IMG/VR virus record: IMGVR_UViG_3300024254_000007
Location: 1-37,490 of that record
Direction: 5' to 3' (one strand)
Origin: a virus
Lineage: Duplodnaviria; Caudoviricetes
Length of the DNA: 37,490 nucleotides
A model generated the notes under the pieces. That model was not told the DNA's origin and did no database searches. It saw only the letters and a program-made list of their open reading frames with translations. Shown in pieces: positions 2,680 through 10,395 of this stretch. The first letter of the stretch is position 1. The number at the start of each line of letters is the position of its first letter. A program made the position numbers and the translations under genes.

Positions 2680-3215
2680 TAGCCGAGTTGGTCGTGCACG
2701 AGGTTTGGTGGGAAATTCAGGCGAGCATGGTCGCCCCATGCCACGCGCAGGGAAGCGTCAACGGCTCGCGCTGCCGCCTCCTCGTCGGCGAAGCGCCCGA
2801 GGTAATGCCGCACGCCACGCGCGACGACGACGGCGCGCCACTTGCCGCGGTGCCAGATCACGCCCCGATACCGGCTTGACGTGCCGAAATGCCGCTGGTT
2901 GGCGTGATTCTCGGCGGGCGATACGAGGCGCAAGTTGGGGCGGCGGTTATCGAGCGTGTCGCCGTTCTTGTGGTCGACGTGCAAGTGCGGCGGCGCGTCG
3001 AGCAAGAACCGATGCAAGAGGACCAGGCCACCGCCCCGGCGTCCGGTTGCGGCATAGGGCCAATGGGCGCCAGCGCGAAAGAGGCACCACCGCAACGGGG
3101 CGACACGCGGCCAATCGCGCTCGTCAATGAGCGTCGAGGCCCCTTGCGTGAGCGGCACGCGCACGCCGTCGGCGAGCACCTCGACGGGCGGCCGCGGGAG
3201 TGGCGGGCGACCCAT
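2679..3215 (-). CDS. HNH-AP2 homing endonuclease
   Basis: LHRFLL...VDHKNGDTLDNRRPNL HNH motif, then SRYRGV...W...YLGRF..EEAAARA AP2 domain; ATG overlaps the TerL-N stop. Confidence 0.92.
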   Translation of the reverse strand: MGRPPLPRPPVEVLADGVRVPLTQGASTLIDERDWPRVAPLRWCLFRAGAHWPYAATGRRGGGLVLLHRFLLDAPPHLHVDHKNGDTLDNRRPNLRLVSPAENHANQRHFGTSSRYRGVIWHRGKWRAVVVARGVRHYLGRFADEEAAARAVDASLRVAWGDHARLNFPPNLVHDQLG

Positions 3216-3913
3216 TATCCTAGTTGATCCATGACTAAATCTTTGAAGAAGCCCGGGCCCGCCGAGCTCACGGCCGTGAGGCGCCCGCCGCCCTCGATGG
3301 TCGGGCGGAGCGCGACCCATGTCTCAAAGGCGTGATCCCAAAACGCGACCTCATCGGCGAGCACGCTCGTAAAGGTGTGCTGCCGCGCTTGCTCCTCGCC
3401 CTCGCCGAGCGCCACGATCTCCGAGCCATTGGGAAAGCGGAGAAAGCCAATGGAGTACTCGACCTCGACCGCGGGAAACGTCGGCGGCAAGTGGTCGTGG
3501 ATGAATTTCGCCCGCCGCACGAGCTCCGCCGACCCCTCCGTCTCCGTCTTGCCGAGTTTGCGCGCCATGAACGCGACCTTGGCATGCGGCGAGAACCGCG
3601 CGAGCCAGTAGTTGGCGGCGACAAAGAGCCAGGTAATCACCATGCGGCGCGATTTCGGCACGGCCAAGATGGGATGCTCTTGCCACCGCCGCACGAGGAG
3701 CTCGGCGTACTCATGCGCGGGGTAGCGCCGCACGCGGCCCGTCACCTCGTCCCGCGTCCAGACGCAATCCCGCACAAACGCCCACGGGTCGCCGGCGGGC
3801 CCGTAGGCGCCGAGCATTTTGCGTTGCTCGAGCAGCAAGCGCGCCGCGGCGCGCATGGCTAAGGGATGGTCGGGCCCGAGGACGCGGCCCGCACCGGCGC
3901 CGGGTTGCGGCAT
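3215..3913 (-). CDS. terL: Terminase large subunit, N-terminal ATPase half
   Basis: Walker A-like PKSRRMVITW, FPNGSEI, Walker B VLADE, motif III VSS; no nuclease domain. Confidence 0.85.
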   Translation of the reverse strand: MPQPGAGAGRVLGPDHPLAMRAAARLLLEQRKMLGAYGPAGDPWAFVRDCVWTRDEVTGRVRRYPAHEYAELLVRRWQEHPILAVPKSRRMVITWLFVAANYWLARFSPHAKVAFMARKLGKTETEGSAELVRRAKFIHDHLPPTFPAVEVEYSIGFLRFPNGSEIVALGEGEEQARQHTFTSVLADEVAFWDHAFETWVALRPTIEGGGRLTAVSSAGPGFFKDLVMDQLG

Positions 3914-3949
3914 TGGCGGGCCCTTGTAGCGCGGCGCCCGGGGGCTCGC

Positions 3950-4153
3950 CTAGGCGTCGGTATGCTCGAGGCGCGCGAGGAGGCGTTTCAGCATGAGCCC
4001 GAGGAGTGGCCGCACGGCGTCGCCGAGCTCCTCGGGCGCGACCGCCATGGTCGACCCCCGAAGCCAGGCCGCCCGGCCGGCATGCTCGACCTCGAGCACG
4101 AGCCGCACGCGATAGCGCACGGCGAGCTCGGCGAGCGCCTCCTCGCGTGTCAT
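3950..4153 (-). CDS. Hypothetical protein
   Basis: GAGGAG upstream; fits the operon. Confidence 0.55.
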   Translation of the reverse strand: MTREEALAELAVRYRVRLVLEVEHAGRAAWLRGSTMAVAPEELGDAVRPLLGLMLKRLLARLEHTDA

Positions 4154-4186
4154 GGCTCCTCGAGGAGCAGGCGCACGACCGGCACG

Positions 4187-4402
4187 CTACCAATTCCCGC
4201 CGGCGGTCTCGGCCTCGCCAAACGTACACGGGCCGCACAGGCCGACCTCGCACACCGTCGGCGCCGCGCCGCATGCATCGCACGCGCCGGTCCAATCCGG
4301 ATCGGTACACGGGCGCGTGTTGCCGTGCGCGCGGCACCGCGGGAGGCGCGCCCAATATGCCGCGTCGCGCCCGGGCACGCGCACCTCATGGGTACGGCTC
4401 AC
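4187..4402 (-). CDS. Cys-rich putative Zn-binding protein
   Basis: GTG overlaps the upstream stop; CDAC...C...CGPC. Confidence 0.5.
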   Translation of the reverse strand: MSRTHEVRVPGRDAAYWARLPRCRAHGNTRPCTDPDWTGACDACGAAPTVCEVGLCGPCTFGEAETAGGNW

Positions 4403-7882: not shown

Positions 7883-8010
7883 CGAAGCGCCCCGAGGACG
7901 AGGAGATACCGCCGCCGCCCCCGCCCGATGACGAGGACGCGCTGAAGCGCCTCGAGGACCTGGAGCCCGAGCCCAAAGACGAGCCCGAGCCCGAGGACGC
8001 CGGCGCGTAG
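7879..8010 (+). CDS. Small acidic Pro/Glu-rich protein (43 aa)
   Basis: GGAGG upstream; ATGA overlap. Confidence 0.5.
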
Positions 8011-8014
8011 CGCC

Positions 8015-9082
8015 ATGGCGTGGTCCTATACCGCGCCGCGGGTGCAGCGCCGCCCGCTCGGCACGCCCGTGCGGCCGGCGTCGAGTGGCGGGACCGGCGG
8101 CCCGCCGACCGGGCCGGCGGGGGGCGACCTCACCGGCACGTATCCCAATCCGACCCTGGATATTTCCGGCGTCAATCCGGGGATCTACGGGGATGCGACG
8201 CACGTCCCGACCCTGGACGTGCGCGGTGATGGTCGGATTTACGGGGCGACCGAGACGGTGTTGCCCACGACGTTCCCGCCAAGTGGCCCGGCGGGCGGTG
8301 ATTTGACCGGGACGTATCCCGGCCCGACCGTGGCCGCGGCAAAGATCACCGCGGCGAAGCTGTCGCCGGCGCCCGTGGCAGGGGACGTCGGCAAGATGGT
8401 GACGGTGGCGACGGGGCCGGCCCTCGCCTACACGGCGGTACCGACAGCGTTGCCCCCGAGCGGCGCCGCCTCGGGTGATCTCTCGGGCACGTACCCGAGC
8501 CCCCAGATCGCGGCGGGGGTGATTGTCGACGCCGACGTGAGCGCCACGGCGGCAATTCAGTACAGCAAGCTCACGGGCGTCCCGACGGCCTTGCCCCCGA
8601 GCGGGGCGGCGAGCGGGGACCTTACGGGGACGTATCCGGGCCCCACCATCGGCGCCCTCAAGGTGACCGATGCGAAGATCAATGACGTCGCGTGGGGCAA
8701 GATCACGGGGGCGCCGACGGCGTTGCCGCCGAGTGGGACGGCGGGCGGCTCGCTGGCGGGCAGCTACCCGAATCCCACGTTGACGACGAGCGGCGTCGCG
8801 GCGGGCACGTACGGGACGGCGGCCAAGATTCCGCAAGTGACGCTCACCGCCGAGGGCCGGGTCAGCGCCGTCACGGAGCTGGCCGTGGCGCCGACCGGCG
8901 GGAGCCCAAGCGGGCCGGCGGGCGGATCGCTCGCGGGCTCGTATCCCAACCCGACGCTCGCGACGACGGGCGTCACGGCGGGCACCACGGGCGACAAGTA
9001 CAACGTCGCCCAAGTCACCGTGAATGCCGAGGGCCGCGTGACCGCCGTCGCGCCCGTGCTGATCCGCGCGCGGTGGGGTTGA
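8015..9082 (+). CDS. Fibre-like structural protein with repeats
   Basis: Six P[ST]GxA[GS]G[DS]LxG[TS]YPxP repeats and three GxxG...[DE]GR[IV] fibre repeats. Confidence 0.75.
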
Positions 9083-9525
9083 ATCCGTTGACGCGGGTTC
9101 CGCTCACGCTGCGCGAAGCCAACGCCTACGTCGCGCGATGGCATCGCCATCACGGGCCGGCGCACGGGTGCCGGTTTTGTCTCGCTGCCGTCTTAGACAA
9201 CCGCGTCGTCGGCGTCGCCATCGTCGGCCGCCCCGTCGCCCGTCGCCTCGACGACGGCTACACGGTCGAGGTCCGCCGCGTGGCGACCGATGGCACGCCG
9301 AATGCGTGCTCCTTCCTCTACGGGGCGTGCCGTCGGGCGGCGCTGGCGCTCGGCTACACGCGGTGCCTTACGTACATTCTCGATACCGAGCCGGGCACGA
9401 GTCTCCGCGCGGCGGGCTATCGCTTGGTCGGCGAGGCCGGTGGCGGCTCGTGGTCGCGCGTGAGCCGCCCGCGGGTCGATCTGCACCCGACGCAAGGAAA
9501 GCTCCGCTTCGAGGCCGGCGCCTAG
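9079..9525 (+). CDS. XF1762-family, Mom-like GNAT protein (candidate DNA base modification)
   Basis: [39 protein letters not shown] and [13 protein letters not shown] overlaps the fibre stop. Confidence 0.8.
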
Positions 9526-10395
9526 ATGCCGTTTCTCGGCGCCCGCGGCGCGGCCCCCGACCCGCGCGGTGTCGCCGCGCAACCCATGCCGGGCGTGACG
9601 GAATGGAAATGCCCGCGGAACGGCGTCCATGTGGTCGAGGTCCACTATACTGCCGACCCGGGCAAGCGGACGGCCGAATGGAAGCGCACCGCGCAGCAAG
9701 GCATGCCGCCGCGCGGCTGGCAACGCGAGTTTGAAATTGCCTTCGACCTCGCCGCGGGCGAGCCCGTGTTGCCGGAATACGTGCCGGCGGAGATGCGCCG
9801 CCCGTTTCCCGTGAGCCCGAGCGCGCGCCTGCTGCGCGGTTGGGATTTCGGGCAAGTGTGCCCCGTCACGCTCTTTGCCCAAGTCGACGTGCACGGGCGG
9901 CTTGGGTTTGTCGCCGAGCTCGTGCTCGAGCATGCCAATCTGACGGCGCAAATCGAGGCGACGAAAGCGCTAACGCTCGAGCTCATGGGCCCGGGCGCGA
10001 ATTGCTTTGACGCCGGCGACCCGGAGGCATTGCATGAGATGGAGCTCGGGTCGATTCGCGCCGCGCTCTTGAAGCACGGCATTGTGTTGCAGACGTTCGG
10101 CGGCCGCGGCGACACGTCGTACAATAATTTGCGCGACCGGCTTTTGCGCCGCGTGAAGATTCCCGGCGAGGACGTGCCGAGCCCGGCGCTCATTGTCGAC
10201 CCGCGGTGCCCGATTCTGCATTCGGCGCTCTCGGGCGGCTTCGCCCGCCATCCGAAAACCGGGAAGCCCATGCCGACGCATCCGTACAAGGACGCTGTAG
10301 ATGCAGCACGCTACCTGAACGACAATCTGCTCGGGAGCTCGTCGGAATGGATGCTCAAACTGCAAGCCATCGCGAAAGCGGATTGCGCGTGGTAG
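9526..10395 (+). CDS. terL: Terminase large subunit, C-terminal (lid plus RNase H-like nuclease) half
   Basis: VHYTADP...WQREFEIAF linker, GWDFG, GDP and DAVDAARY acidic motifs; upstream of the portal. Confidence 0.85.
   Translation: MPFLGARGAAPDPRGVAAQPMPGVTEWKCPRNGVHVVEVHYTADPGKRTAEWKRTAQQGMPPRGWQREFEIAFDLAAGEPVLPEYVPAEMRRPFPVSPSARLLRGWDFGQVCPVTLFAQVDVHGRLGFVAELVLEHANLTAQIEATKALTLELMGPGANCFDAGDPEALHEMELGSIRAALLKHGIVLQTFGGRGDTSYNNLRDRLLRRVKIPGEDVPSPALIVDPRCPILHSALSGGFARHPKTGKPMPTHPYKDAVDAARYLNDNLLGSSSEWMLKLQAIAKADCAW

Follow-up and report, generated by a model that had tools for sequence, protein, structure and literature searches.

A phage terminase large subunit encoded by two genes on opposite strands and cut inside its ATPase domain

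Introduction

The large terminase subunit (TerL) is described as one two-domain protein (PMC7824862, PMC7617512), and tailed phages are taken to share it universally as a marker made of a single chain (PMC7824862). In T4 gp17 and in the proteins of D6E, P74-26, Sf6 and HK97, a PF03237-type ATPase and an RNase H nuclease share one polypeptide. Is this arrangement obligatory? We analyzed a virus sequence of 37,490 nucleotides (Duplodnaviria; Caudoviricetes), IMG/VR record IMGVR_UViG_3300024254_000007, referred to as the window at its full length, in which TerL is divided between an N-terminal and a C-terminal half. Laid end to end, the two halves show the motifs of single-chain TerL in the same order. 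Here, however, two divergent genes 5.6 kb apart encode them, and the last ATPase strand and the lid are found on the nuclease chain.

Besides the Arthrobacter phages considered below, other actinophage clusters carry similar annotations of TerL as two open reading frames, and the herpesvirus terminase gene UL15 consists of two exons joined by splicing, a precedent for covalent rejoining. In Arthrobacter phages of cluster AY, TerL occupies two consecutive open reading frames (gp2/gp3 of BillyTP and gp2/gp3 of BlueShadow), as described in PMC11920828 and PMC12820723. These viable phages share with the phage studied here the presence of two TerL genes. The BillyTP genes, however, are consecutive, overlapping and on one strand (600-1679 and 1663-2259), whereas those in the window diverge. 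Moreover, the second BillyTP gene starts about 13 residues before the first nuclease aspartate (GFDG), a cut at the ATPase-nuclease linker; here, by contrast, some 105 residues separate the cut from the equivalent aspartate that follows it, and the cut is within the ATPase domain. Among the relatives we compared, consecutive same-strand frames of the cluster AY kind occur only in four distant ones (L129, L198, L209 and L214).

Other phage enzymes are divided as well. The split NrdA of Aeh1 (mobE) and gene 43A/43B of T4-like phages are reported to work as two chains without splicing (PMC2988022). These are different enzymes, and their pieces are adjacent, on one strand, around an inserted element, whereas in the family studied here an endonuclease gene is late and patchy. 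Split-intein fractured genes include one gp17-like terminase locus (PMC2677866). That locus and UL15 rejoin covalently; in the window no intein or intron sequence was found. No report of a TerL split onto opposite strands or within the ATPase domain turned up in the full-text literature, a search that took in few subscription papers and no supplements, and a term search of a 2026 review (PMC13595956) returned no instance of 'split', 'separate gene' or 'two genes'.

Results and Discussion

Two genes together encode one terminase

The window is a complete circular phage genome with a 127-bp terminal direct repeat, classed as 100% complete in the virus record and found in soil metagenome runs. 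It encodes an integrase (tyrosine recombinase), a portal, a major head protein and an exonuclease (Pfam/PHROG matches). Two open reading frames had been assigned to TerL from the letters alone by the original prediction, and their translations bear this out:

3215..3913, minus strand: TerL N chain, 232 residues; phrog_2 match; 40-44% identity to single-chain homologues; ratio of nonsynonymous to synonymous substitution (dN/dS) 0.12.
9526..10395, plus strand: TerL C chain, 289 residues; collinear with residues ~230-490 of single-chain homologues; predicted interface; dN/dS 0.13.

The two starts are 5,613 nt apart, and G+C content at third codon positions is coding-like in both frames (0.84 for the N chain, 0.81 for the C chain). 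Tight coupling to a neighbor, also noted before, is seen in TAATG after the N-chain frame and TAG-ATG before the C-chain frame. ATPase and nuclease thus do not reside in a single polypeptide: they are encoded by two frames on opposite strands, and no second TerL-like gene was seen among the open reading frames of the genome. The genomic context is that of a terminase, with the portal and major head protein identified by family match and the small terminase gene (terS) by synteny only.

The N chain carries a Walker A region KSRRM (K87, R89, R90), Walker B LADE (D187, E188) and motif III VSS (215-217), followed by a helix, and it terminates in VSSAGPGFFKDLVMDQLG, that is, with DQLG directly before the stop. 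Its Walker A region resembles that of lambda TerL (KSA-R-VGYS; PMC6379665, Table 1); the GKT lysine is missing here and in fused relatives alike. The C chain comprises a beta-hairpin with the last ATPase strand (34-40), a lid region (R67, E68) and an RNase H-type nuclease (D107, D162/D165, D259). The lid and nuclease had been recognized in the C-chain gene from the start; a refinement concerns its beginning, as the frame opens not at the VHYTADP/lid region but some 38 residues earlier, with the beta-hairpin of the ATPase domain. Families are of limited help in finding either half: the N half matches the terminase large subunit family phrog_2 with E 1e-7 and stays below the Pfam cut-off, the C half has no family match in Pfam, PHROG or NCBIfam, and a C-half profile run against solved structures gave only two chance matches.

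Are these two products parts of the same protein? A homologue search with the N half for longer proteins found 16, of which 13 measure 506-541 residues. The N half aligns to residues ~15-212 of the single-chain homologues, and in 15 of the 16 longer proteins the C half aligns from residue ~230 into the C-terminal part (E 8e-19 to 1e-11). All 13 aligned single-chain proteins place 19-25 variable residues between the last N-half residue and G23 of the C half, without overlap. The proposed alignment to full-length TerL thus maps the halves end to end and locates the break in the loop that follows motif III. An origin of the halves from different TerL lineages is ruled out, as both match the same single-chain proteins and their trees are concordant.

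In the AlphaFold model of one single-chain homologue (pLDDT 73, pTM 0.54), the missing stretch is a loop that leads from helix 209-214 to strands 241-245 and 252-256. This model matches TerL of D6E, T4, Sf6, T7 and HK97 (E to 8e-13), and also the nuclease domains of P22, G20c and SPP1 and viral terminase models. A profile of the fused homologues matches T4 gp17 (E 1e-4), with motif III aligned at T4 residues 285-289. The T4 lid spans residues 314-357 and includes the lid glutamate E351 (PMC6379665, Table 1). Since the cut falls about 15 residues after motif III, it precedes the last core strand and the lid. The supposed division into an ATPase half and a nuclease half must therefore be redrawn: the cut runs inside the ATPase domain, and the C chain holds the last core strand together with the lid. 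By position and invariance, E68 of the C chain is the putative lid glutamate.

Certain fused homologues are larger, at 840-870 residues, and contain an intein-sized insert (P0131, P0135, P0214, P0221, P0232 and P0246; L143, L149 and L205). Where checked, the insert lies in the C-terminal part, away from the fission loop; that of P0131 carries PF14528.

Both genes are intact and under selection

The N-half gene of every close IMG/VR locus (53 of 53; 80-99% identity) stops immediately after DQL[G/M], with TAA, TAG or TGA and with varied next genes. The C-half genes begin with a start codon of their own, mostly directly after the stop of an upstream gene that varies from locus to locus. The divergent layout recurs in each of the 11 other distinct contigs that hold both halves at close identity, at 4.6-9.8 kb from start to start, and two further contigs (L028/L071 and L049/L109) also have the halves on opposite strands. 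The split that was to be sought in relatives is accordingly present in all close loci with both halves.

An independently assembled Logan contig, X1 (possibly of the same source), covers 1500-12000 unbroken and with zero differences. Logan contig X3 covers 1744-3505, including the ATPase stop, and X4 covers 9059-9710, including the nuclease start, again with zero differences. The agreement of these contigs and the divergent layout in 11 of 11 others rule out a misassembly, as had been argued from the coupling of each gene to its neighbors. Nor do the genes decay. Median dN/dS against this genome, by the Nei-Gojobori method over 52 N-half and 51 C-half loci (L102 was dropped for an internal stop), is 0.12 for the N half and 0.13 for the C half, compared with 0.19 for the portal gene and 0.38 for the putative terS. 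K87, R89, R90 and E188 are invariant in 74/74 aligned N halves, and K87/R89/R90, D187-E188 and S216 are conserved in 72-74 of them; the 48 aligned C halves all retain R67, E68, D107, D162, D165, D256 and D259. Readthrough or frameshifting is impossible for genes on opposite strands; in the adjacent-split relatives L129 and L214 it may occur. We conclude that the two-gene TerL is real, conserved and most likely a functional two-chain enzyme.

The cut recurs across the family

A profile search of 1.84 billion representatives retrieved 362 proteins at E<=1e-30. When the best 150 of these (50%-identity representatives) were classified at the protein level, 94 stopped at the cut, 48 proved to be fused and 8 were of other kinds, so that two-gene forms exceed fused ones in this query-biased sample. 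The N chain ends 0-10 residues past the last conserved helix in 90 of the 94 short representatives. A FastTree of 194 rows requires no fewer than 41 changes between the split and the fused state (shuffled mean 59, minimum 51). Both forms occur together in eleven small clades with support of at least 95, two of them nested, and there are eleven split-fused pairs at 41-62% identity, ten drawn from mixed clades. A single origin of the split is rejected (p-AU 0.0004) on a 30-row subset that was picked after the first tree was seen. As the tree is unrooted and its deep branches are weak, these changes do not separate fissions from re-fusions. Judging by the trees, the loop after motif III is a tolerant site that has been cut repeatedly.

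A predicted two-chain subunit

Can the pieces fit together? Co-folding of N and C chain scored 0.90, against 0.00 for the best of 3 controls. The mark used is reached by 116 of 157 solved complexes and by 2 of 215 mismatched pairs, a calibration that holds only roughly for self-made alignments. At least 94% of contacts agree between runs, and partner pLDDT is 79 or higher. The tightest predicted contacts join the N-chain strand that runs into Walker A (residues 82-88) to residues 34-39 of the C chain; the lid segment 67-74 of the C chain also lies within the predicted interface. We propose that the C chain would complete the ATPase sheet with the strand that the N chain lacks, its strand 34-39 pairing with N-chain strand 82-88, and that it would contribute the lid and nuclease as well. 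The Walker A arginine and the lid glutamate, which couple hydrolysis to movement in known motors, would then sit on separate chains, so that the N chain alone would be an incomplete ATPase.

Taken together, we consider it very probable that two intact genes, with the cut inside the ATPase domain, encode TerL of this phage and that their products, as the models predict, rebuild one working subunit non-covalently. Several points weigh against this reading. The co-fold may owe its pass to resemblance to solved single-chain terminases, a known hazard for split-gene halves; the score therefore shows that the pieces fit, not that they bind. Residues 159-196 are poorly modeled in the single-chain homologue (pTM 0.54 for the model). 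One of the 52 C-half copies tested (L102:1677-2549) has a TGA inside the GWDFG motif, which makes it either a sequencing error or a dead copy. No clear inverted repeat marks the breakpoints of the inversion discussed below, and the exact breakpoints are not visible. Finally, the phage is uncultured. The heterodimer model that had been called for thus supports the fit of the chains, whose binding is a prediction. As to the two-chain packaging motor suggested at the outset, a TerL in two selected genes stands, and the motor itself is the most likely outcome on prediction only.

If the two chains do rebuild one subunit, several consequences follow. A natural cut between the ATPase core and the last strand plus lid separates the arginine toggle from the lid glutamate, and combinations of wild-type and mutant halves would offer a ready system for studying how the lid couples, how subunits mix and how the nuclease is controlled. 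The TerL parts can likely do without covalent continuity and without co-transcription. In annotation practice, phages of this kind are missed or called defective, with a C half that matches no family model and an N half below cut-off. One could go further and suppose that the fission site makes assembly of the packaging ATPase a gate: the N chain would be inactive until the lid-nuclease chain donates the missing strand, the motor would be switched, timed or re-paired through two independently placed genes, and the family would have moved between one- and two-chain forms dozens of times. We offer this broader scheme tentatively and think it unlikely as a whole.

Is the nuclease chain separately controlled?

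Alternatively, the chains might act partly apart, with a separately controlled C chain serving as a nuclease or switch that is limiting or can be exchanged. The genes lie in divergent transcription units in all layouts (12 of 12), which would suit this idea, and so would the many recurrences of the cut within the family, if they reflect an advantage. Recurrence is, however, also expected at a tolerant loop without any advantage, and fused and split sisters coexist. Furthermore, since a core strand and the lid belong to the C chain, one C chain is predicted to be required for every active ATPase site. A third argument comes from a 13-nt promoter-like motif, ASAMGGGCCCGCC, present in 4 copies in the genome against 0.02 expected, an optimistic control, as the motif was derived from the same sites:

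3915..3927, minus strand: promoter-like motif, ending one base before the N-chain ATG.
6895..6907, plus strand: promoter-like motif at the start of the unit whose last gene is the C-chain gene; TTGAC at 6870.
10538..10550, plus strand: promoter-like motif before the portal gene, with TTGAC upstream.
14196..14208, plus strand: promoter-like motif with TTGAC upstream.

A sigma-70 consensus scan found 0 promoters in 1600-10700. The motif suggests a late promoter shared by both strands, and hence co-regulation of the halves. Separate transcriptional control of the nuclease, part of the original prediction, is not supported: the units are indeed separate, yet the identical motif precedes the ATPase gene and heads the nuclease unit. 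Its copy upstream of the N gene is specific to this genome; most relatives have a coupled cargo gene there. All in all, a partly independent role of the C chain appears rather improbable, and a jointly assembled subunit remains the preferred reading.

The extended element reads TTGAC or TAGGC, about 17-18 nt, then (T/C)A(C/G)AMGGGCCCGCC, and a weaker copy lies near 30104. Similar promoter-like elements precede the portal gene in relatives. Many genes are without a Shine-Dalgarno site and start directly after a stop or the motif.

Trees and gene order place fission before inversion

How did the two halves come to lie on opposite strands? Profiles of both halves classified 160 viral loci and this genome, some contigs being counted twice, into 79 fused, 20 same-strand split, 10 opposite-strand split (this genome included) and 52 without a C half within the locus. 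Gaps in the same-strand forms range from overlap to 7.4 kb; the split is adjacent or overlapping in L129, L198 (ATGA), L209 (TAATG) and L214 (possibly a frameshift). A tree of 92 rows, after removal of 13 duplicates and 4 short rows, unites the divergent forms in one clade (support 1.0 / 100) nested inside same-strand split forms with gaps of 0.2-7.4 kb. Separate N-half and C-half trees recover the same main groups. The relatives thus form a series from fused through adjacent split and same-strand split with cargo to opposite strands, and the divergent layout is the end point of this traceable series.

An old inversion of roughly 2.7/3.2-9.5 kb had been considered as the origin of the split. 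As the opposite-strand clade nests within relatives that were already split on one strand, the inversion followed fission and did not cause it. Gene order also indicates a different segment. The nearest relative, L054, has the order rep(-) exo(+) terS ATPase C-half portal, and a flip of the terS-ATPase block alone (~2.3 to 6-7 kb) restores an L054-like order in the window, again with fission first and inversion later. In L124/L125, the holin-like gene has a homologue (50% identity) that is located between the two halves and on their strand. The features on either side of the presumed breakpoint are as follows:

4763..5461, minus strand: putative small terminase (terS), helix-turn-helix-like, lying upstream of the N-chain gene; assigned by synteny, both in divergent and in same-strand relatives.
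5462..7013, no strand: region of divergence, mostly non-coding, that separates terS from the late genes of the plus strand and contains short repeats and a peak in GC skew.

By gene order, the region 5462-7013 likely holds one inversion breakpoint. From the trees and gene order we picture fission in a tolerant loop, which would yield adjacent coupled genes; cargo genes would then move between the two halves, one soil lineage would later flip its terS-ATPase block, and an HNH gene would enter the N-gene end later still, in some members.

This last gene deserves attention, because it suggests another cause of the fission:

2679..3215, minus strand: HNH-AP2 endonuclease gene at the 3' end of the N gene; PF13392 (E 2e-8) and PF00847.

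Did a homing endonuclease break TerL by insertion, as mobE did in Aeh1 nrdA (PMC2988022)? Such an origin would be compatible with a two-chain enzyme. The HNH gene is located right at the end of the N gene, whose last codons it repeats: it ends in NLVHDQLG and a stop, then TAATG and a gene for 64 residues, and so reproduces the usual N-gene end of relatives, whereas the present N-gene end is an A+T-richer synonymous copy. The old end has been retained by the HNH gene, and a recoded replacement end is as expected of a homing endonuclease that protects its target. The displaced old end, however, already had a stop coupled to the next gene; the HNH gene therefore entered an N gene that was already split, and its position is no proof that it caused the split. 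It directly follows the N gene in only 6 of 50 close loci besides this genome (L010, L011, L015, L029, L046 and L052). No HNH homologue lies between the halves in the same-strand relatives examined, where the gap frames read, by eye and without a family scan, as small membrane or virion-like genes, and L198 and L209 are split with stop and start directly overlapping. An ancient endonuclease, since lost, may have caused the fission. Overall we see little probability in an endonuclease origin, and prefer fission in a tolerant loop.

In the same-strand gaps (L054, L055, L111, L113-L127), proteins of ~90-110 residues that start like MxATxxxxGTWT recur, often in two copies.

Covalent rejoining and switchable inversion

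Could the halves be rejoined covalently, by RNA trans-splicing or a split intein, so that the motor subunit is still one chain? The split-intein terminase locus from a lake metagenome is a precedent (PMC2677866), and some single-chain homologues, such as P0131 with its PF14528 match, have intein-sized inserts. Against this, the N chain ends so close to its last conserved helix in 90 of the 94 short representatives that no space is left for an N-intein, and the C chain has at most ~22 residues before its first homologous strand. The whole genome gave zero Rfam matches at E<=0.1 and no intein Pfam match. The flanks past the N stop and before the C start are not conserved and are filled by tightly coupled, varying genes. 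We regard covalent rejoining as highly unlikely. A switchable DNA inversion that unites the halves, or an assembly error, has next to no probability: inverting ~3.2-9.5 kb would join them and the genome encodes a tyrosine recombinase, but the joined state occurs in 0 of 11 close-clade contigs, no joint linking the halves is among those listed from four runs (contigs drop rare variants), the segment ends lack good inverted repeats, the flanking genes differ per relative, and twenty loci are split on one strand without inversion.

Neighboring genes and further observations

The remaining annotated genes lie upstream of the C-chain gene, as variable cargo (7014..9525) whose content differs among relatives, and downstream of it:

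7014-7409, plus strand: membrane (holin-like) gene, a putative label.
7406-7882, plus strand: lysin-like gene, a putative label.
8015-9082, plus strand: repeat-rich tail-like gene, a putative label.
9079-9525, plus strand: Mom-like DNA modification gene, coupled to the C-half start; phrog_1384, E 7e-32.
10565..13099, plus strand: portal protein; PF23899 SU10_portal, E 9e-6 (below the curated cut-off); phrog_332, E 5e-13.

The putative terS has no significant profile match, and its atlas look-alikes are unnamed viral or helix-turn-helix clusters. Beside it, at 5600-5800 within 5462-7013, GCTAG/GCTGG repeats and the GC-skew peak mark a candidate pac site or origin. The best identities to cultured phages (tblastn) are below 32%, so that no close cultured phage was found. 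Host clues come from one 9-kb contig binned in a Gaiellales metagenome-assembled genome and one protein from a Steroidobacteraceae metagenome-assembled genome. Region 18509-29958 contains podovirus-like tail genes together with long internal-virion-like genes rich in Gly/Ala/Gln/Pro; none of those scanned matches Pfam above cut-off. In this genome and in L004-L052, cargo concentrates in two hot spots, the terS-ATPase slot (here 3950-4766, minus strand) and the slot before the C-half gene (here 7014-9525, plus strand). The distance between terS and the ATPase gene varies from near zero to more than 5 kb, and both sides of the divergence can harbor Mom-like or tail-like genes. The Mom-like gene itself is missing in a co-occurring strain, as seen in a joint at 9078-9524 in run X3.

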